Below, one piece after another: positions 32,399 through 42,094 of a stretch of DNA of 64,000 bases (positions are counted from its first letter, which is position 1; each line of letters begins with the position of its first letter). A program made the translations under genes and the position numbers. This DNA is from Ruthenibacterium sp. (lineage in GTDB: Bacteria; Bacillota; Clostridia; Oscillospirales; Ruminococcaceae): assembly GCA_036642215.1 (NCBI GenBank), contig JAVXUG010000001.1, positions 11,896-75,895 of the forward strand, in the 5' to 3' direction. The notes under the pieces were generated by a model. The model was not told the origin of the DNA and made no database searches. It worked only from the letters and a program-made list of their open reading frames with translations.

Positions 32399-32431
32399 TT
32401 GCAAAACATCCACCAAAGTGGTATACTTTGG
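32399..32431 (+). promoter_or_regulatory. SigA-type promoter of the nitrogenase-like operon with overlapping 7-5-7 inverted repeat
   Basis: TTGCAA(32399-32404)-17-TATACT(32422-32427) with extended TG; CCAAAGT-ggtat-ACTTTGG (32413-32431). Confidence 0.7.
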
Positions 32432-32460
32432 GAAATAATTCTGACATTGAAAATTCGTTT

Positions 32461-32556
32461 TGAGATGGAAGATACAGATCTACGGCTTTTTAGGATTCCT
32501 CTGTAGAGGTATTCTTGTCCCGTTATCGCTGCATCTTTCGGATGCAGCGATTTTTT
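32461..32556 (+). promoter_or_regulatory. Structured 5' leader with internal intrinsic terminator (putative attenuator/riboswitch)
   Basis: Imperfect stem aagatac..tctac / gtaga..gtattctt, then the perfect hairpin ATCGCTGCATC-tttcg-GATGCAGCGAT followed by a T run, about 75 nt before the first start codon. Confidence 0.65.
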
Positions 32557-32629
32557 ATTGCCGTTACACTTGCCCGCTCACGCGGGTGCACAGCTTAAAA
32601 AGCACACGGTGGAAAGATGAGGAAATAGC

Positions 32630-32887
32630 ATGGAATCACGCGTAGCGGTCATCGGTATTATCGTGGAGGAGGAATCGGCGGCAGAGCCGCTGAACGCCAT
32701 CCTGCACGAATACGGCAAATTCATTGTCGGGCGCATGGGCATTCCCTATCGCGCCAAGGGCATCCATATTATTAGCATCGCCGTGGACGCGCCGCAGGAT
32801 GTCATCAGCGCGCTCTCGGGCAAAATCGGCAGGTTGACGGGTGTGAGCGCCAAAACGGCGTACTCGAACGTCATCACACCGTCATGA
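32630..32887 (+). CDS. TM1266-family 'iron-only hydrogenase system regulator' (ACT/NikR-C-like)
   Basis: RVAVIGIIVE...LNAILHEYGKFIVGRMGIPY...IISIAVDAPQDVISALSGKIGRLTGVSAKT. Confidence 0.88.
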   Translation: MESRVAVIGIIVEEESAAEPLNAILHEYGKFIVGRMGIPYRAKGIHIISIAVDAPQDVISALSGKIGRLTGVSAKTAYSNVITPS

Positions 32888-33906
32888 GGCGCGCGCGCGC
32901 GGTCGGTGCGCTTTCGCCGGCGTGGAAAATTGCGCTGCTTCTGCTGCCGATTCTCGCGGCGATAGCGGCGCTGGGCATCGGACGCATTGTCATTGCGCCG
33001 GCGGATGTTTTGCGCTCACTTTCGGCAAAGCTGACAGGCGGAGCCGGCCTTTCACAGCAGATGGAAACCGTCCTATGGACCATTCGCCTGCCTCGTATTC
33101 TTTTGGCTCTTTTAGTCGGGGCAGGACTTTCTGTGGCAGGCTGTGCGTTTCAAAGTTTGTTTGCAAATCCGCTTGCAACACCCGATACGCTTGGCGTTGC
33201 AAGCGGTGCCAGCTTTGGTGCCGCGCTTGGGCTGTTGCTTGGACTTGGGCTTGTCGGTGTGCAGGCACTTGCACTTGCACTTGGCGCGGCGGCTGTGGCG
33301 CTGACCTGGCTTGCGGGCAGTGGGCGCGGCAGCGGCATGAGCGGAACGGTGCTGTCCGGCATTATGATTGGCTCTTTGTTTACGGCGCTTGTCTCCCTTG
33401 TCAAGTTTGTTGCGGACACAGAGTCGCAGCTGCCCGCCATCAGCTACTGGCTGATGGGCAGCCTTTCCTCGGCGGGTTATTCGTCTCTTGCCCTCGGTGC
33501 GCCGCCCATTCTGCTTGGCATTGCCGTGCTGTTTTTATTGCGCTGGCGGCTGAATTTACTGCCGCTGTCCGAGGATGAGGCACGCGCAAGCGGGACAAAT
33601 ATTCGTTTGCTGCGCGGTGTCACCGTGGTATGCGCTACTGCTATTACGGCATCATGCGTGTCAATGTGCGGACAGGTCGGTTGGATCGGGCTGCTCATTC
33701 CGCATATGTGCCGCATGAAATTTGGCAACAACCATCTTTCTGTCTTGCCCGCATCCATCAGCCTTGGCGCAACATTTCTTGTTGTTGTGGATACGCTCGC
33801 ACGCAGTGCAACCGCGTCTGAAATTCCTGTTTCCATCCTTACTGCTATCATTGGCGCACCGTTTTTTATTGTGTTGATGCGCCGTTCAGAGGGGTGGCAG
33901 CTATGA
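32884..33906 (+). CDS. FecCD/BtuC-family ABC permease
   Basis: IRLPRILLALLVGAGLSVAG, NPLATPDTLGVASGA, WLMGSL, DEARASG and GWIGLLIPH. Confidence 0.93.
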   Translation: MRRARAVGALSPAWKIALLLLPILAAIAALGIGRIVIAPADVLRSLSAKLTGGAGLSQQMETVLWTIRLPRILLALLVGAGLSVAGCAFQSLFANPLATPDTLGVASGASFGAALGLLLGLGLVGVQALALALGAAAVALTWLAGSGRGSGMSGTVLSGIMIGSLFTALVSLVKFVADTESQLPAISYWLMGSLSSAGYSSLALGAPPILLGIAVLFLLRWRLNLLPLSEDEARASGTNIRLLRGVTVVCATAITASCVSMCGQVGWIGLLIPHMCRMKFGNNHLSVLPASISLGATFLVVVDTLARSATASEIPVSILTAIIGAPFFIVLMRRSEGWQL

Positions 33907-35078
33907 CGCTGGCAGTAGAGCACGCTAGCTTTGGCTATGCAAAATGCGGAGAAGTTTTGCGGGATGTCACCTTTACCGCAAACGCAGGCGATCTTGTAGC
34001 GGTTCTTGGCCCGAACGGTTCCGGAAAAACAACGTTGCTGCGCTGTATGATGGGATTTTTGCGCTGGACAGACGGATGCAGCACCTTGGACGGCGCAAAC
34101 ATCCGCACACTGCCGCCCCGCAAATTGTGGCAGGCGATGGCCTATGTGCCCCAAGCGCGCAATGTCACGGCGGCCTACACGGCCGAGGAGATGGTTTTGC
34201 TCGGGCGCAGCAGCCGTTTAAGTGCACTGTCACAGCCCGCCGCGCAGGACTTTGACGCGGCGCATGCCGTGATGGAAACGCTGCACATTCTGCCGCTGCG
34301 ACGCAAGAAATGCAGTGAAATCAGCGGTGGAGAATTGCAGATGGTGCTGATTGCACGCGCACTTGCCGCGCAGCCGCGCGTGCTGATTTTGGACGAGCCG
34401 GAATCGAATCTTGACTTTAAAAACCAGCTTCTTATTTTAGAAACACTCTCGCACCTTGTGTCGGACGGCATGACATGCATTTTTAACACGCACTACCCTG
34501 CCCACGCGCTGCAACGCGCCAATCAATCTCTGCTGCTGTCAAGGGACGGTCACGCGCTGTTTGGCGACACCTCCGCAATTGTGACAGAGCAAAATATCGA
34601 GCAGGTTTTCGGCGTAAAGGCCGCCATCGGCGAAGTAGAGACGCGTGGCAGCATTCTGCAAAGCGTTGTGCCCATTTCTGTTTCGCAGCCGGACGCTCCA
34701 CGCTTTGCGGGCGCTCTTGCGACAAATTTTCTTCATGCAGACAAAAAAAGCGCAGACAATGCAGCACCTTGCATCCCCTCGCGCTGCGTGCTTGCCGTTG
34801 TCGCAATCATCGCGACAGATTCCGCTGTCGCTGAAAAAATCAACAAATATCTGCACGCGTACAAAGAGTTCCTCATCGGGCGCATGGGGATGCCCTATCG
34901 CGATGGCGGGGTTTTCATCATCAACGTCACGCTGGACGCACCCGAAGTTTGCGTGCGCACCTTGGTGCAGCGGCTGTCAAATTTGCCGGGGGTGAGTGTA
35001 AAAGCGACGTTTGCACCGGAATTTTCGGCCGCCGCCGGCCCGAGCGTTCCCATTGGGACAAAGGAGGATTCTCTGTGA
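33903..35078 (+). CDS. FecE/BtuD-type ABC ATPase with C-terminal TM1266-like domain
   Basis: GPNGSGKTT, ISGGELQ, LILDEPE and H-loop; C-terminal INKYLHAYKEFLIGRMGMPY...IINVTLDAP...LSNLPGVSVK aligns with the 32630 protein. Confidence 0.9.
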   Translation: MTLAVEHASFGYAKCGEVLRDVTFTANAGDLVAVLGPNGSGKTTLLRCMMGFLRWTDGCSTLDGANIRTLPPRKLWQAMAYVPQARNVTAAYTAEEMVLLGRSSRLSALSQPAAQDFDAAHAVMETLHILPLRRKKCSEISGGELQMVLIARALAAQPRVLILDEPESNLDFKNQLLILETLSHLVSDGMTCIFNTHYPAHALQRANQSLLLSRDGHALFGDTSAIVTEQNIEQVFGVKAAIGEVETRGSILQSVVPISVSQPDAPRFAGALATNFLHADKKSADNAAPCIPSRCVLAVVAIIATDSAVAEKINKYLHAYKEFLIGRMGMPYRDGGVFIINVTLDAPEVCVRTLVQRLSNLPGVSVKATFAPEFSAAAGPSVPIGTKEDSL

Positions 35079-36136
35079 CAAACCGTGAAATCATCGATGC
35101 GCTGCATGTGCGGCAAGCGCTGTCCTTTGACGCATGGGTACAGCTGATTCGCACCCGCACCGAGGACGATTGTGCCTATGCCGCACAGCTTGCGCGCACA
35201 CTTGCGCAGCAGCGCTTTGGAAAGCAAATCTATTTTCGCGGCGTGATAGAATTTACAAATTACTGCAAAAATGACTGCTATTACTGCGGCATCCGTCACG
35301 GAAACACCTGCGCCGCACGTTACCGTTTGACGCAGGACGACATTCTTGCCTGCTGTGAGGACGGCTATGCGCACGGCTTTCGCACCTTTGTTTTGCAGGG
35401 CGGCGAGGATCCCTATTTCACCGATGAGCGCCTTGTTGCAATGGTATCGGCAATTCGCGCGCGGTTTGCCGACTGTGCCATCACCTTGTCTGTGGGTGAG
35501 CGCAGCCGCGCGTCGTATCAGCGTCTGTTTGACGCGGGCGCAAACCGCTATCTTTTGCGGCACGAAACGGCGGACGCGGCGCATTATGCCCAGTTGCACC
35601 CCGCGGATATGCTGTGGGCGCACCGCATGCAGTGCCTGCGTGATTTAAAGGGCATCGGCTATCAAACGGGCTGCGGCTTTATGGTGGGCACACCCCATCA
35701 GACGGCGGAGCATCTGGCGGCGGATATGGTATTCATCGGCGCGTTTCGCCCGCAGATGATTGGCGCCGGGCCGTTTATCCCGCATAGGGACACACCCTTT
35801 TGTGACGCGCCTGCCGGAAGCGTGGCGCTTTCGCTGTTTTTGCTGAGCCTTTGCCGCATTGCACAGCCGGAGGTTCTTTTGCCCGCCACCACAGCGCTGG
35901 GAACTGTGTGCGGTGACGGACGGCAGCTTGGCGTACTGGCGGGCTGCAACGTTGTCATGCCAAATTTATCGCCGCTCTCCGTGCGCAAAAAATATATGCT
36001 TTACAACGATAAGATTGGCACAGACGACAGCGCCGCGGACGGTGTGCGCGCGCTGACACAGCAGATGGAGGCCATCGGCTACACTGTGCACGTTGGCCGC
36101 GGTGACTATAAAAAGGAGGACATGCCCCATGATTAA
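35075..36136 (+). CDS. hydE: HydE-family radical SAM enzyme
   Basis: GTG start after AAGGAGG; [17 protein letters not shown] (CX3CX2C), [40 protein letters not shown] and YMLYNDK. Confidence 0.88.
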
Positions 36137-36893
36137 GCTTGCAATGTACGGCAAAGGCGGCATCGGGAAATCGACAACCGTATCGAATTTGTCCGTTGCC
36201 CTTGCCGAAAAAGGTTACCGCGTGATGCAAATTGGCTGCGACCCGAAAGCGGATTCCACCATCAGCCTACACGGCGGAGTGGCAATTTCGACGGTACTTG
36301 AGCTTGTGCGCACCCGCAACAATGATTTTACGCTGGACGAAATGGTCACGGTCGGCGACGGCGGGGTTATTTGTGTGGAGGCAGGCGGCCCCACGCCGGG
36401 GCTTGGCTGCGCGGGGCGCGGCATTATTGCGGCCTTTGAAAAGCTGGCAGAAAAGGGCGCGTATGAAGCTTTTCAGCCCGACATCATCCTGTATGACGTT
36501 TTGGGCGACGTTGTCTGCGGCGGCTTTACCATGCCCATGCGCAGCGGCTATGCCGACAAGGTTTTTATTTTGACCTCCGGCGAAAATATGTCTTTGCACG
36601 CGGCGGGAAGCATCGCCATGGCTGTCGAAAATTTTCGCGGGCGCGGCTATGCGCAGCTGGGCGGACTGATTTTAAATCGGCGCAGCGTCAAGGACGAGGA
36701 CGCAAAGGTTGCGGAGCTTGCCGCCGATTTGCACACGGTCATTGTGGGCAGTCTGAACCGCAGCGACGCAGTGCAAGCCGCCGAGGAGCTTGGCAAAACA
36801 GTGCTTGCCGCCTTTCCTGACAGCACGATGGCGGCGGAATACCGCGCTCTGGCCGACAATGTGCTGGCTTCTTGCGGGGTGACAACATGCTGA
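36129..36893 (+). CDS. Nitrogenase iron-protein-like reductase (NifH/NflH-like)
   Basis: [37 protein letters not shown] and [11 protein letters not shown]; both [4Fe-4S] Cys ligands are present. Confidence 0.95.
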
Positions 36894-38218
36894 CGCGCTG
36901 CAATTCCACCTCCGTCACCGAACGCGATGCCTGTGTTTTAGTTGGGGACGCATCCTTTCCGTCACCATTCCCCTCCGGCCTTGAATATGCCGCGCCCGCA
37001 CGCGGAACATGGAATATTGTCCACACGGGCATGCTCATCCCCGAAATCCACGAAATTTTCGTCTGCGCGGCAGGCTGTCTGCGCGGCGTAGTGCTGACGG
37101 CTGCGGAAATGAACGCATCGCATCGCTTTTCCACCATCGCCGTGCGCGAAAACAATGTGCTTGAGGGCGACATGGAATCGCTGATGATTGACGGCGTAGC
37201 GGATATTCTGCAAAAGCTGCCGGCACGTCCGCCCGCCGTGCTGCTGTACACAAGCTGCATTCATCACTTTATCGGGTGCGACCTTAACTTTGTGTACCAA
37301 ACGCTGCGCGAAAAATTCCCCGATGTGGCCTTTGCCGATTGCTATATGAATCCCATTCTGCGCAAGAGCGGTCTTACCCCCGATCAATTGATGCGCCGAC
37401 AGCTTTACAGTCTGCTTTTGCCGCGCGAAATAAACCCGAAAAGCGTGAACATCATCGGCAACAATCTGCCCACAGACGAGACGAGCGAGCTTGTGCAGAT
37501 GCTGCGCACAGGCGGCTTTACGCTGCGCGATATCACGCGGTGCAGCACTTATGCAGACTATCAAAAAATGGCCGAAAGCGCCCTCAACATCACGTATCAT
37601 CCGGCGGCAGCGCCCGCCGGCGACGCATTATCACAGCGGTTATCGCAGCGTCATCTGTCTTTGCCGCTGTGCTATGGTTATGACGAAATAGCGCGAAATC
37701 TCAGCACGCTTGCCGTAGCGCTCGGCATGGAAGCGCCCGATCCGGCGCCGCGCATTGCCGCGTGCGAGGCGGCGCTTTCGGCGGCGCTGAGCGTCATCGG
37801 GAACGCGCCGATTGCCCTTGATTACACCGCCACCATGCGTCCGCTTGGGCTGGCGCGGCTGCTGCTTTCGCACGGCTTTCATGTGCAGCGCATTTATCTT
37901 GACAGCATCACGCCGGAGGAAAAAGAAGATTTTGACTGGCTGCGCACAAACGCGCCGTCGCTGCTTTTCTATGCCACGGTGCAGGTAAAGCTGCGCGTAC
38001 TGCCGCGCCGCACAGCAGAAAAAACGCTTGCCATCGGACAAAAAGCCGCCTATTTTACAGGCACGGATTATTTTGTCAATATAGTTGAGGGCGGCGGCAT
38101 GTACGGCTTTGACGGCATTTGCCGCATAGCGCAACAGATGCAAAGCGCATTTCTGCACGCAAAAAATGCAAAAAATTTAATTCAACTGAAAGGGCTTGGC
38201 TGCGGGTGCTGCGTATGA
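36887..38218 (+). CDS. Nitrogenase component 1-like alpha subunit (NifD/NflD-like)
   Basis: [30 protein letters not shown] and SVNIIGN fit the oxidored_nitro fold; no Cys or His where the FeMo-co ligands are expected. Confidence 0.85.
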
Positions 38219-39465
38219 AACAAACAGCAAGCATTATTTCGACCTATGCAGCCGATGTATCGGGCGTGGCATCCGCTCTGTTTGAACTGGGCGGCATGAC
38301 CGTGATGCACGACGCGTCAGGCTGCAATTCCACCTACAATACACATGATGAGCCGCGCTGGTACGATACGGACAGCCTTGTATTTCTCTCCGGGCTGTCG
38401 GAGATGGAGGCCGTGATGGGGGACGACGGCAAGCTCATCGACGACATTGCCGCTGCCGTGCGGGAGCTGCACCCTGCCTTTTTAGCGGTGGCGGGCACGC
38501 CCATCCCGATGATGGTCGGCACCGACTTAAAGGCTGTGGCCGCTGTGCTGGAGGCGCGCACGGGCATCCCCTCTTTCGGCTTTGCCACAAACGGCATGCA
38601 CTCGTATTTGTCCGGCGCTTCGATGGCGTTTGCCGCATTGGCAAAGCACATGGTTGCTCCCGTTGCTGCCGACGCGCCAAGGCATGAAATGCTGTGTGTG
38701 AATCTTCTCGGCGCAACTCCGCTTGATTTTTCGATCAACGGCAGCGTCGCGGCAATCGCAGACGCTGTGCGGTGCGGCGGCGCACAGGTGATCAGCACAT
38801 GGGCAATGGGCAGCACGCTGGCTGAGCTAAAGCGTTCGGGCAGCGCCGATGTAAATCTTGTGGTGTCCTATTGCGGCCTTGCGGCGGCGCGTATCTTGCA
38901 GCAGCGCTTTGGCACGCCGTATGTCGTCGGTGTGCCGATTGGCTCTGCCCTTACACAAATTATTTTGTCCGCGCTCGCAGCCTCTGCCGCAGATAAAAAA
39001 TGCCGCATTGCCTATCAAGCGGCAGATAAGCAGGACAAAAAAGCCTGTGAATGCGACGCATCCTCGTTAAAACGTTCGGCGCACCCCGCATTGCCTGTTG
39101 TCACGCTGATTGGCGAAAGCGTTTATTCCTGCTCCTTGGCGGCGGCGCTTTGGGCAGAGCGCGGCATTCCGGCGCGGGTTTTGTGCCCACTGGAAACAGA
39201 GCCTTCGCTGCTTCGCGCGCAGGATTTCGTTGCGCCCGACGAGGATGATTTGTCGCCCTTGCTGTGCGCCACCGCGCAGACCCCCGCAAGCGTCATTGTG
39301 GCAGACCCGCTCTACCGCCCGTTGTGCGCCGCAGACGCAGCGTTTGTTCCGCTGCCGCATGAGGCGTTTTCGGGCCGCATTTATCGCAAGAACATCCCGA
39401 ACCTTATTGCCGATTTCCCGATATTTTTAAAATCTTTAGAAAAAGAGGTACGCACCCATGACTAA
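38215..39465 (+). CDS. Nitrogenase component 1-like beta subunit (NifK/NflK-like)
   Basis: HDASGCNSTY, LSEMEAVMGDD, GTPIPMMVGTD, VNLLGATP and ADVNLVVS; ATGA-coupled to the D-like gene. Confidence 0.85.
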   Translation: MKQTASIISTYAADVSGVASALFELGGMTVMHDASGCNSTYNTHDEPRWYDTDSLVFLSGLSEMEAVMGDDGKLIDDIAAAVRELHPAFLAVAGTPIPMMVGTDLKAVAAVLEARTGIPSFGFATNGMHSYLSGASMAFAALAKHMVAPVAADAPRHEMLCVNLLGATPLDFSINGSVAAIADAVRCGGAQVISTWAMGSTLAELKRSGSADVNLVVSYCGLAAARILQQRFGTPYVVGVPIGSALTQIILSALAASAADKKCRIAYQAADKQDKKACECDASSLKRSAHPALPVVTLIGESVYSCSLAAALWAERGIPARVLCPLETEPSLLRAQDFVAPDEDDLSPLLCATAQTPASVIVADPLYRPLCAADAAFVPLPHEAFSGRIYRKNIPNLIADFPIFLKSLEKEVRTHD

Positions 39466-40624
39466 CACAAAGCGCATTCTCTCTCTTGCACTGAGCGCAG
39501 TGCTGATGCTGTCGCTCGTCGCCTGCGGCGCGCCTGCGGCTTCTTCCGTCCAAAGCTCCGCATCTGCTGTTAGCGCGCCCGCAAGCGCAAGCGACACGCT
39601 TACCATCACCGATCATTTGGGCAACAGCGTCACGGTTCCGCGTACGATCAAGCGCATCGCCGTATGTGATTTGTTTCCCCTACCCTCGGTTTTGTCTGTA
39701 TTTTTTGACTCTGCCGAAAAAATTGTCGGCATGGCACCGCCCAGCATGAGCGCCGCGAAAAGCAGCCTTTTAAGCGAGCTGTACCCCGAAATTTTGAACG
39801 CAGAAACCGGCTTTATTGATGGCACAAACGTGAACACCGAGGAGCTTTTAAAGCTTGCGCCGGACGTTGTGTTTTACAGTGCCGCCAGCAAGGAGCTGGG
39901 CGAAAAGCTGACGGCGGCCGGGTTTAACGCCGTGGCTATTTCTGTCAGCAAATGGGATTATGATGCCATTGAAACGCTGAACCAATGGATTTTGCTTTTG
40001 AGCGAAATATTCCCGGAAAACGCCAAGGCGGATATTGTGGCTGCCTACAGTGCAAAAACGTATGACCGCGTGCAGGAGCGCATCAAAACCTTGACCGATG
40101 ACGAGCGCGCCCGCGCATTTTTCCTGTTTCAGTACAGCGATGCGTCCATCTCTACGTCCGGCAAACACTTTTTTGGTCAGTGGTGGGCAGATGCCATCGG
40201 CGCAAAGAATGTCGGCGAGGAGCTTGACAAGGATAATTCAGCAGCCGTAAATATGGAACAGCTTTATGCGTGGAATCCCGACCTTATTTTCATCACAAAT
40301 TTTAACATTTCACAGCCGAAGGATTTATACGAAAACGGCGTTGGAAATTATGACTGGAGCGGCATTGCCGCTGTGCAGAACAAGCGCGTTTATAAAATGC
40401 CGCTTGGCATGTATCGCAGCTACACCTGCGGCGTGGACACCCCTGTGACCTTATTGTGGTTGGCAAAAACAGCTTATCCCGACCTGTTCAGCGATGTAAA
40501 TATCACGCAGGAAGCAAAAGACTATTACAAAGCCGTGTTTGGCATTGCGCTGACCGATGCACAGGCCGAGATGATCTTTACCCCGTCCTCCGCCGCGGGC
40601 ACAGGCTTTGCAGCGGGCAAATAA
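39458..40624 (+). CDS. Cluster A-II (siderophore/cobalamin/heme-type) ABC substrate-binding lipoprotein
   Basis: Lipobox LSLVAC and Ser/Ala linker; TITDHLGNSVTVP, NTEELLKLAPDVV, NMEQLYAWNPD and AVQNKRVY. Confidence 0.9.
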   Translation: MTNTKRILSLALSAVLMLSLVACGAPAASSVQSSASAVSAPASASDTLTITDHLGNSVTVPRTIKRIAVCDLFPLPSVLSVFFDSAEKIVGMAPPSMSAAKSSLLSELYPEILNAETGFIDGTNVNTEELLKLAPDVVFYSAASKELGEKLTAAGFNAVAISVSKWDYDAIETLNQWILLLSEIFPENAKADIVAAYSAKTYDRVQERIKTLTDDERARAFFLFQYSDASISTSGKHFFGQWWADAIGAKNVGEELDKDNSAAVNMEQLYAWNPDLIFITNFNISQPKDLYENGVGNYDWSGIAAVQNKRVYKMPLGMYRSYTCGVDTPVTLLWLAKTAYPDLFSDVNITQEAKDYYKAVFGIALTDAQAEMIFTPSSAAGTGFAAGK

Positions 40625-40656
40625 TGCACCGCGCTACAAGAAAGGAGCTGTTTGTT

Positions 40657-41865
40657 ATGGGTCTGAATGATACTCCCTCCGGTGACCGCGTGCACATTGG
40701 TTTTTTTGGGCGGCGCAACGCGGGCAAGTCCAGCCTTGTGAATGCGGTGACGGGGCAGTCGCTCGCCATTGTGTCCGAGACAAAGGGCACGACCACCGAC
40801 CCTGTTTACAAGGCTATGGAGCTGCTGCCCATGGGTCCCGTGATGATCATTGACACACCGGGCTTTGATGACGAGGGCGCGCTGGGGGCGCTGCGCGTGC
40901 AAAAGGCGAAGCAGGTACTGAACAAAACAGACGTTGCGGTGCTTGTTGTCGATGCAGCCGAGGGCATACAGCCCGGTGATGAGGAGCTTCTTGCTTTATT
41001 TCGCGCAAAAGAAATTCCCTATCTAATCGCCTTCAACAAAAGCGATCTTGTGCAAAATCCGCTGGCACTGCCTCAAAACGCAATGTTTGTCAGCGCAGAA
41101 ACCGGTGAAGCCATCCCTGCATTGAAAGAGCGCATTGCCCGTCTTGTGAGCACCGATGACTTAGCGCTGCGGCTGGTCGGCGATTTGATCAAGCCCCTTG
41201 ACCTTGTTGTGCTTGTTGTTCCCCTGGATGCTGCCGCACCCAAGGGGCGGCTGATTTTGCCGCAGCAGCAGGCGATTCGTGACATTTTGGAAGTCGGCGC
41301 AGCCGCCGTTGTCGTAAAGGAGAATGCGCTGCGCGAGACGCTGACACACCTTCGGAAAAAGCCTGCGCTTGTCATTACGGACAGTCAGGTGTTCGCCGGG
41401 GTTTCGGCGGACACCCCGGATGATATCCCCTTGACATCGTTCTCAATTTTAATGGCGCGCTACAAGGGGCTGCTTGACACCGCCGTGCAGGGCATTTCCG
41501 CCGTAGAACGGCTGTGCGACGGTGACACCGTGCTGATTGCCGAGGGCTGTACCCATCACCGGCAGTGCGATGATATCGGCAGCGTAAAAATTCCGCGCTG
41601 GCTGCAGCATTACACGCATAAAAAGCTGCACATCAAAACCGTGAGCGGAACCGAATTTCCGAGTGACCTCTCCCCTTACGCGCTGATTATTCATTGCGGC
41701 GGCTGTATGCTGAACGAGCGCGAGGTGCGCTACCGGATGAAATGCGCGCAGGATCAGAATATTCCCATCACCAATTACGGCATTGCAATCGCCTATATGC
41801 AGGGCATTTTAAAGCGAAGCCTGAGCATTTTTCCGCAGCTTGTGGCGAAGCTTATTTCAGAGTAA
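40657..41865 (+). CDS. hydF: HydF-family GTPase / Fe-S scaffold
   Basis: GRRNAGKSS, GTTTDPV, DTPG, NKSD, RLILPQQQ and LVITDSQ; cluster ligands EGCTHH and IHCGGCM. Confidence 0.95.
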   Translation: MGLNDTPSGDRVHIGFFGRRNAGKSSLVNAVTGQSLAIVSETKGTTTDPVYKAMELLPMGPVMIIDTPGFDDEGALGALRVQKAKQVLNKTDVAVLVVDAAEGIQPGDEELLALFRAKEIPYLIAFNKSDLVQNPLALPQNAMFVSAETGEAIPALKERIARLVSTDDLALRLVGDLIKPLDLVVLVVPLDAAAPKGRLILPQQQAIRDILEVGAAAVVVKENALRETLTHLRKKPALVITDSQVFAGVSADTPDDIPLTSFSILMARYKGLLDTAVQGISAVERLCDGDTVLIAEGCTHHRQCDDIGSVKIPRWLQHYTHKKLHIKTVSGTEFPSDLSPYALIIHCGGCMLNEREVRYRMKCAQDQNIPITNYGIAIAYMQGILKRSLSIFPQLVAKLISE

Positions 41866-41888: not shown

Positions 41889-42041
41889 ACCGCAAAAAGG
41901 TGGCATAGCGGATCCTCTTATAGCAGTTTTCGATGCATGGATGCTTTTTACAGTTTGCAAAACTGCTATAGCTCCCCTTCGCGGGGCGATTTTATGTGCC
42001 GGACACAGACACTGCGCAAGAGCAATGTGAAACCACATTGC
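41889..42041 (+). repeat. Dispersed palindromic intergenic repeat, copy A
   Basis: Aligns by eye end-to-end with 60465-60615; contains the hairpin tatagcagtttt...aaactgctata, then cgcggggcgattttatgtgccgg and GCAATGTG-N4-CACATTGC. Confidence 0.75.
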
Positions 42042-42094
42042 TCTATTTTGTTAAATTGCTGTAAAAAAATCGAGTAAATTGCAAAATAAGCCAA

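Follow-up and report, generated by a model that had tools for sequence, protein, structure and literature searches.

To our knowledge, the biosynthesis of the H-cluster of [FeFe]-hydrogenases is taught as strictly the work of three maturases, HydE, HydF and HydG, of which HydG alone provides the Fe(CO)2(CN) synthon. Here we describe an operon that retains the genes for HydE and HydF and carries between them genes for the nitrogenase-like proteins NflH, NflD and NflK (collectively Nfl). It lies in a 64,000-nucleotide (nt) stretch of the genome of Ruthenibacterium sp. (GenBank assembly GCA_036642215.1, contig JAVXUG010000001.1; G000:C1:11896-75895 in our numbering), which we refer to in its entirety as the window. 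The assembly comprises 2.24 Mb in 109 contigs and is 94% complete.

Among the proteins of the nitrogenase family, NifEN holds an interface [4Fe-4S] cluster ligated by three cysteines from NifE and one from NifN, possesses a site for the cofactor precursor and works together with NifH. Nitrogenase proper, NifDK, is characterized by six cysteine ligands to its P-cluster (three from D, three from K), by ligation of the FeMo cofactor (FeMo-co) through Cys275 and His442, and by the company of NifB, NifE and NifN. Amongst importers of the ATP-binding cassette (ABC) type, MetNI and ModBC carry C-terminal domains on their ATPases that, on binding the compound to be transported, block its import, a mode of control known as trans-inhibition.

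The association between nitrogenase-like and hydrogenase maturation genes has been touched upon before. Dos Santos et al. 2012 (PMC3464626) noted, in a one-sentence remark, that Coprococcus catus and other Firmicutes have NifHEN-like proteins beside those of hydrogenase maturation, and guessed at a role in the assembly of an active-site metallocluster. A 2022 survey did not find a typical hydG in several Clostridium acetogens and recorded HypCDEF without HypAB, making no link to Nfl genes, and a 2026 review (PMC13474568), which counts Groups IV-D and IV-E and the greater part of IV-F and VI among the uncharacterised ones, draws no link between nitrogenase-like proteins and hydrogenase maturation. 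In a full-text literature search we found no paper tying Nfl genes to the loss of HydG, and the remark by Dos Santos et al. is the sole published mention that we came across.

Nfl genes in the hydG slot

The operon consists of nine genes on the + strand (32630-41865), encoding, in this order, a small TM1266-family protein, a FecCD permease, an ABC ATPase fused to a TM1266 domain, HydE, a NifH-like protein (NflH), NflD, NflK, a lipoprotein binding protein and HydF. The genes are translationally coupled, with successive junctions overlapping by 4-11 nt. Two relatives from the same order (genomes G111 and G163, loci L103 and L106) carry the arrangement leader-TM1266-hydE-hydG-hydF, to be compared with leader-TM1266-[permease-ATPase]-hydE-[nflH-nflD-nflK-SBP]-hydF in the window, where SBP denotes the substrate-binding protein. 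Since hydE, hydG and hydF follow one another behind the same leader in these relatives, nflHDK occupies the slot of hydG.

HydG itself was not found in the 94%-complete genome: a search with the family model (TIGR03955) matched only HydE (57 bits; cut-off 312) and revealed no ThiH-like tyrosine lyase either, and tblastn with the HydG of G111 returned only a cross-match to HydE (26% identity over 145 residues). A sequence-only reading of the window had described the locus as being without HydG or HydA. The former applies to the genome as a whole. HydA, on the other hand, is missing from the window only, with four homologues (Fe_hyd_lg_C) encoded elsewhere, two of which have complete H-cluster motifs L1, L2 and L3 (TSC[CS]P, PCxxK, ExMxCxxGCxxG): a protein of 599 residues on contig C18 (TSCSP, MPCTAK, EFMACPGGCVNG) and one of 508 residues on contig C46 (TSCCP, GPCAAK, EGMACPGGCVAG). 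With HydA, HydE and HydF present and HydG not found, the organism therefore appears to need H-clusters and to have the last two maturases while lacking the first.

Regarding the individual HydA homologues, the largest (G000:C18:29793-30653, outside the window) has TSCSP for TSCCP, so that the proton-relay cysteine is replaced by serine, and the HydA-like proteins at C1:87039 and C18:36010 lack motifs L1 and L3 and might act as sensors or be without catalytic activity. Searches of the genome by tblastn found no HypF, HypD or HypE, no second Nfl (component-1) set and no AspA (a relative of aspartate ammonia-lyase), and the [NiFe] large-subunit motif is absent from all genomic open reading frames of at least 300 residues. 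On these grounds we rejected, for the Ruthenibacterium genome, both HypFCDE as a source of CN and the presence of a [NiFe]-hydrogenase.

Across Clostridia, a genome that has the Nfl module hardly ever has HydG as well. We sampled 250 genomes across the class, counting HydG and HydF above the family cut-offs: HydG is present in 161, HydF in 168 and an NflD orthologue in 7, the Ruthenibacterium genome being one of these 7. None of the 157 genomes with both HydF and HydG has an NflD orthologue, compared to 7 of the 11 that have HydF and no HydG (p = 5e-10 for NflD versus HydG and p = 5e-13 in a further test; both are Fisher tests that treat relatives as independent). When genomes are instead reached via the cluster, HydG exceeds its cut-off in 5 out of 50 and HydA in 49. 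At the level of hosts, the pattern extends over at least four families of the sample (f1, f2, f50, f54) and a second phylum (Synergistaceae), and is found within a single genus (g64), where three genomes have Nfl and no HydG and two have HydG and no Nfl.

The operon is also one that recurs across hundreds of Clostridia species: NflD has 539 relatives among species-representative genomes, and a query with the C. luticellarii orthologue has 286. We mapped synteny over 129 distinct loci. The arrangement seen in the window, with an importer and no Hyp genes (type A), accounts for 91 of them, and hydE, hydF or TM1266 is present in 85 of these 91. In a further 16 loci (type B, a variant seen in L164-L173 and L180 from Clostridium acetogens, in L040 from Megamonas, and in L155-L157, L160 and L060) there is no importer, and HypF-HypC-HypD-HypE and a second, divergent Nfl H/D/K set lie directly upstream, in the order NifH2 / second NflD-NflK (fused in some) / HypF-HypC-HypD-HypE / (TM1266) / NflH-NflD-NflK / HydF (HydE, AspA). 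Importer and Hyp genes occur together in none of the 129 loci. The remaining 22 are truncated or take a minimal form, hydE-TM1266-nflH-nflD-nflK-hydF, as in L190, L195 and L231. Given its conservation in 91 of 129 loci, comparison across genomes indicates that the gene arrangement is not a chance juxtaposition.

Hosts include Oscillospiraceae, Lachnospiraceae, Peptostreptococcaceae, Erysipelotrichia, Anaerovoracaceae, Negativicutes (Megamonas) and Synergistaceae, and their genomes are, going by record titles, mostly metagenome-assembled genomes (MAGs) from gut, rumen or faeces; C. ljungdahlii, C. ragsdalei, C. carboxidivorans, C. drakei, C. luticellarii and Megamonas are among the hosts of type B. 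Over 87 loci, no further gene family is conserved beside the nine-gene cluster, and no neighbour that would supply CO or CN was seen. Two variants deserve a mention of their own. In L026, an azaaromatic (yjdF) riboswitch (L026:11663-11762, 79.6 bits) directly follows the binding-protein gene, at the usual position of hydF. In Intestinibacter bartlettii DSM 16795, a cultured bacterium of the human gut (L033/L182), the leader motif precedes a cluster of permease, ATPase, nflHDK and SBP that is devoid of hydE, hydF and TM1266, with HydG, HydE and HydF located elsewhere in the genome.

The leader provides a further connection to canonical hyd operons. It spans some 200 nt and contains the conserved motif CTGACAyyGAAA...TTGAGrTGrAAGAyAC, downstream of which lie a variable hairpin and a strong terminator hairpin. 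A 4-bp stem covaries, being found in four fully complementary forms (CATC/GATG, CACC/GGTG, CGTC/GACG and CGCC/GGCG). A strict version of the pattern has 50 matches in 2.67 Mb of related loci, all of them on the sense strand and all tied to nfl or canonical hyd operons; in most cases the next gene after the match is TM1266 or, in loci that have no TM1266, the permease, and in L022, L025 and L093 the motif sits between TM1266 and permease. Canonical hydE-hydG operons among the strict matches are those of L103 (L103:1107) and L106 (L106:1113), and looser variants head L095 and L113; in addition, some 45 other loci carry the motif. The whole Ruthenibacterium genome contains exactly one match. No Rfam family reaches threshold in the leader, where the only sub-threshold hit is to ncr1241 (E 0.002), and nothing was found in eight related loci; a known riboswitch was rejected on this basis. 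We regard the leader as an uncatalogued RNA motif and as a candidate riboswitch or attenuator of a hydrogenase-maturation regulon.

Maturases, nitrogenase-like proteins and importer

By score, HydE and HydF look like ordinary maturases. HydE reaches 532 bits with TIGR03956 (cut-off 254.6) over model positions 1-340 and matches HydE of T. maritima (7o1o) full-length, with 241 bits over residues 3-336. HydF, compared with its own model TIGR03918, reaches 562 bits (cut-off 325.6) and matches PF01926, PF18128 and PF18133, i.e. its GTPase, dimerisation and tetramerisation domains. The translations contain all the motifs that had been quoted in the sequence-only reading, namely the CX3CX2C radical S-adenosylmethionine (SAM) motif (as CKNDCYYC) and YMLYNDK in HydE, and, in HydF, the GTPase boxes GRRNAGKSS, DTPG and NKSD together with the CxH...HCxxC ligands (as EGCTHH and HCGGC). 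Both genes are present as a single copy in the whole genome, and one HydE and one HydF exceed the cut-offs in each of 30 genomes tested, including five that have both HydG and the module. In G097, a HydG-less genome outside this set of 30, there are two HydE copies (L162/L163), one in the nfl/importer cluster and one beside hydF.

Whether nfl-linked copies form a clade of their own had been put forward as a test of their identity, and the answer is a divided one. In a quick maximum-likelihood tree of HydE, 56 rows form a single clade with a support of 99 in the Shimodaira-Hasegawa-like approximate likelihood-ratio test (SH-aLRT), comprising 55 nfl-linked copies and the HydE of G273, whose locus reads permease-ATPase-HydF-HydE; three nfl-linked copies fall outside. 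Distinct as it is, the clade is nested among ordinary clostridial HydE. The corresponding tree of HydF shows partial clustering, with 32 of 39 nfl-linked copies in a weaker group (SH-aLRT 92) and the others mixed with canonical copies. Because the nfl-linked HydE clade cuts across host taxonomy, it would seem that module and maturases were transferred horizontally together.

Only two alignment columns consistently discriminate between nfl-linked and canonical HydE (L to A and L to I), and neither belongs to a known catalytic motif. With just two discriminating columns and the scores of an ordinary maturase, the substrate of HydE is probably of the usual kind, unchanged from that of its canonical counterparts. 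The suggestion that these are HydE/HydF paralogues dedicated to a new cofactor fails on several counts: they are the only copies in the genome, they score far above the equivalog cut-offs, HydA genes are intact, and the two discriminating columns give no sign of a retooled active site.

Turning to the nitrogenase-like proteins, NflH retains the P-loop and both [4Fe-4S] cysteines (C94, C130) in 85 of 85 sequences, and scores 293 bits with the CfbC model (cut-off 402) and 184 with BchL (cut-off 345). For the component-1-like subunits, scores are 30 bits with CfbD (cut-off 268), 57 with BchB (cut-off 490) and 20-67 with nifD, nifK and nifE (cut-offs >400). Conserved residues in NflD are H46, H55, C60, C64, C124, H126, H127, C152 and a C-terminal CxxC; in NflK they are H32, C37 (its only well-conserved cysteine) and H44. 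Three or more conserved cysteines in NflD and one in NflK add up to a '3 Cys + 1 Cys' pattern, which resembles the NifE/NifN interface rather than a P-cluster. Searching PDB chains with NflD by phmmer gave no match. For an AlphaFold2 model of NflD, with a predicted local distance difference test (pLDDT) score of 87, the best folds are NifN and NifE (template modelling score, TM, ~0.6), followed by nitrogenase K and D and methylthio-alkane reductase, at 12-19% identity. HydE is the only radical SAM gene among the nine, and the operon contains no gene of the MarB, IsrB or NifB type.

As far as the importer is concerned, the type II ABC set is complete, with a PF01032 permease, a PF00005 ATPase and a PF01497 binding protein, and the lipobox of the latter suggests that the importer faces outside. 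The specific NCBIfam importer equivalogs (BtuC, FecC/D, FhuB, IsdE) all remain below cut-off. In PDB, the binding protein is nearest to 4ovk (unannotated), then to MolA (HI_1472) and then to binders of Ni/Fe complexes. The TM1266 protein, encoded beside hyd maturase genes, scores 116 bits with TIGR03959 (cut-off 60.8), and a second TM1266 copy forms the C-terminus of the ATPase. This extra domain is present in most loci: at least 55 related loci gave full-length ATPase matches, which cover 85% or more of the query and extend over the C-terminal domain.

Coordinates of the operon and its flanking signals are listed in Table 1; every gene named in the sequence-only reading was recovered where it had been placed, by profile matches and in translation.

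Table 1. Features of the nfl-hyd operon, in window coordinates
Feature	Position	Strand	Basis
Promoter-like site TTGCAA-17-TATACT, with upstream TG	32399..32427	+	consensus match only
Leader RNA, then intrinsic terminator (hairpin 32525-32551 plus T run)	32441..32557	+	conserved motif, fold z-score -3.4
TM1266-family small protein, putative ligand-binding regulator of Fe-only hydrogenase system	32630..32887	+	TIGR03959, PF21699, PDB 2nzc match
FecCD/BtuC-type permease, type II ABC importer	32884..33906	+	PF01032, E 1e-78; start overlaps TM1266 stop codon
ABC ATPase with C-terminal TM1266-like domain (residues ~300-371)	33894..35078	+	PF00005; PF21699, E 1e-16
HydE, radical SAM maturase, sole genome copy	35075..36136	+	TIGR03956
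NifH-like ATPase/reductase (NflH)	36126..36893	+	P-loop, cluster cysteines; NCBIfam CfbC/NifH below cut-offs
NflD, nitrogenase component-1-like subunit (Oxidored_nitro)	36887..38218	+	family match, conserved residues, AlphaFold2 model
NflK, partner subunit of NflD (Oxidored_nitro)	38215..39465	+	family match, conserved residues
Lipoprotein substrate-binding protein of importer (Peripla_BP_2, cluster A)	39458..40624	+	PF01497; lipobox LVAC in translation
HydF, GTPase scaffold, sole genome copy	40660..41865	+	TIGR03918
Terminator-like hairpin closing the operon	42019..42044	+	hairpin

A proposed supply route to HydE in the place of HydG

Why should a genome with intact HydA, HydE and HydF carry nitrogenase-like genes where its relatives carry hydG? 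We think it reasonably likely that the operon provides a HydG-independent supply route for the substrate of HydE, in which the Nfl system and the importer do the job of HydG. This had been one of three alternatives raised on sequence grounds; the anticorrelation with HydG, the positional replacement of hydG and the leader common to canonical hyd operons now favour it, its chemistry staying conjectural. Under this reading, NflDK, reduced by NflH with ATP, would act as a NifEN-like scaffold or converter, passing on to HydE a synthon of the Fe(CO)x(CN) type or an equivalent. In type A the donor of the Fe ligands would come from outside, via the lipoprotein-dependent importer; in type B it would derive from HypFCDE and the second Nfl set. 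If MetNI and ModBC are a guide, the ATPase might be held back by its TM1266 domain, so that trans-inhibition stops import when the cytoplasmic ligand is plentiful, and TM1266 domains may more generally sense a pathway intermediate. HydE and HydF would then complete the [2Fe] subcluster and transfer it to HydA in the ordinary way.

One can go further and imagine that HydG-less Clostridia of the gut and rumen salvage a preformed organometallic Fe-CO/CN fragment, or a close precursor, released by hydrogenase-bearing neighbours, take it up through the TM1266-gated importer and rework it, in an ATP-driven, NifEN-like manner, into the substrate of HydE, type B being the de novo counterpart. In this specific form we consider the proposal unlikely.

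A number of observations weigh against supply by the Nfl system and importer. To begin with, its support is wholly comparative. Kinship between genomes inflates the statistics given above: the HydF tree yields 5 independent contrasts, of which 3-4 go in the expected direction and 0 in the opposite one (p = 0.125-0.5), so that the direction of the anticorrelation is consistent and its formal support limited. Nor is the module strictly exclusive of HydG, since five carriers hold both. Conversely, four genomes with HydF (G056, G073, G127 and G152) have neither HydG nor NflD, even after NflD was searched for again at E 1e-5, and the module can therefore not be the sole way of dispensing with HydG; these four are to be put down to assembly gaps or to a third alternative to HydG. 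Around the minimal form of the operon, the 10 kb to each side contain no importer and no Hyp genes. The Ruthenibacterium genome offers no identifiable source of CO or CN, which makes the imported substrate a guess, and the binding protein's nearest relatives of solved structure are binders of molybdate or of Ni or Fe complexes, or lack annotation. Type B acetogens have a group 1a [NiFe]-hydrogenase, which their Hyp genes may serve (PMC9431212). Finally, the Ruthenibacterium assembly is 94% complete and split into 109 contigs.

Some of these points speak for a second scenario, in which NflHDK and the importer assist in assembly, by delivering Fe or S, by ATP-driven reduction of intermediates bound to HydF or HydE, or by repair, without replacing HydG, and CO and CN come by an unrelated route or from ambient diatomics. 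The coexistence of module and HydG in 5 of 50 carriers is what one would expect of such an accessory, and among the five is Intestinibacter bartlettii, where the cluster has kept the leader and has no hydE or hydF. In the same vein, HydF expressed with HydE alone brings about ~1% of HydA activation in vitro from ambient diatomics (cited in PMC9431212), and there are the four HydF-positive genomes that have neither HydG nor Nfl. If the module were no more than an accessory, however, we would be left without an explanation of why it is found in 0 of 157 genomes with HydF and HydG and in 7 of 11 without HydG, and of why nflHDK should sit in the hydG slot of an otherwise identical operon frame. 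We regard an accessory role as unlikely, though worth keeping in mind.

A third scenario turns the relationship around: NflDK would be the recipient, with HydE and HydF (joined by HypFCDE in the variant) building a cofactor of the Fe-CO/CN type for a reductase of an imported compound. There is precedent in that the Group IV nitrogenase-like systems MAR, ISR and CfbCD are catalytic reductases (PMC13474568), and an importer is suggestive of substrate uptake. Yet with hydE and hydF the sole copies in the genome, two HydA proteins with intact H-cluster motifs would then go without maturation; HydA is present in 49 of 50 carriers; the anticorrelation with HydG would be unexplained; and the leader RNA is common to ordinary hydE-hydG-hydF operons. 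A new enzyme thus strikes us as quite improbable.

That this is an ordinary split locus, its hydG unassembled or too divergent to be recognized and the Nfl and importer genes unrelated passengers, is scarcely credible even for an assembly that is 94% complete in 109 contigs and even though MAG bins lose genes: the family search finds HydE only and no ThiH-like tyrosine lyase, tblastn with HydG from the same order likewise finds HydE only, and 45 of 50 independent cluster-bearing assemblies are without hydG when 64% of genomes in the class have it. Translational coupling further ties the nine genes to one another, and their synteny holds in several families and in no fewer than two phyla. The first of the sequence-only alternatives, hydG lying elsewhere, was therefore abandoned.

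If the Nfl system and importer do stand in for HydG, a HydG-independent route would be widespread, operating in Clostridia of the gut, the rumen and the acetogens that number hundreds of species, and its Hyp variant would extend to such syngas workhorses as C. ljungdahlii and C. carboxidivorans. A branch of the nitrogenase-like superfamily that is uncharacterised at present would be assigned a function, and the maturation chemistries of [FeFe]- and [NiFe]-hydrogenases would be linked. Genome-based predictions of H2 metabolism that demand hydG would need to change, new parts would become available for heterologous hydrogenase production, and the cross-feeding of hydrogenase cofactor precursors in gut communities would become a testable possibility. 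Were salvage to be borne out as well, it would be the first instance of cofactor salvage for the active site of a hydrogenase, and the first of a nitrogenase-family protein acting on an Fe-CO/CN unit.

Comparison with known systems

The importer resembles the type II systems BtuCD-F and MolBC-A in its FecCD permease and Peripla_BP_2 lipoprotein, and, with regard to trans-inhibition, MetNI and ModBC in having an ATPase with a C-terminal domain of the ligand-binding type. It differs from all of these in that the extra domain is TM1266-like, a family otherwise met with as a stand-alone protein in hyd operons.

With CfbCD, MarBHDK, IsrBHDK and DPOR/COR the Nfl proteins share the pairing of an ATP-driven, NifH-like reductase with a component-1-like partner, as reflected in the 293 bits of NflH to CfbC. 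All NCBIfam scores for Nfl proteins are nonetheless far below cut-offs, which sets them apart from CfbCD, DPOR and COR, and, unlike MarBHDK and IsrBHDK (Groups IV-C and IV-F), which are linked to sulfur metabolism and include a NifB-like radical SAM protein, the operon is without a partner of the MarB or IsrB type, no extra neighbour being conserved in the 87 loci. True nitrogenase differs in several respects: NflK has one conserved cysteine, nifD, nifK and nifE scores are below cut-offs, and there is no second component-1 set. There may be a resemblance to NifH and NifEN, the maturase of FeMo-co, in a NifH-like ATPase that has both P-loop and cluster cysteines, in NifN and NifE as best folds of NflD, at a TM of only ~0.6, and in a 3 Cys/1 Cys pattern by count. 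Identity is 16-19%, there is no NifB-like radical SAM gene, and the partners are HydE and HydF rather than nif genes.

The association remarked upon by Dos Santos et al. in 2012 evidently concerns the same genes; the anticorrelation with HydG, the positional replacement, the leader RNA and the dichotomy between importer and Hyp genes were not part of it, and neither was experiment. A close parallel is the canonical TM1266-hydE-hydG-hydF operon, which has the same leader motif, the same first gene, TM1266, HydE and HydF equivalogs in the same order, and HydA elsewhere in the genome. What distinguishes the window is that nflH, nflD, nflK and the binding-protein gene fill the slot of hydG, and that permease and ATPase have been inserted before hydE.

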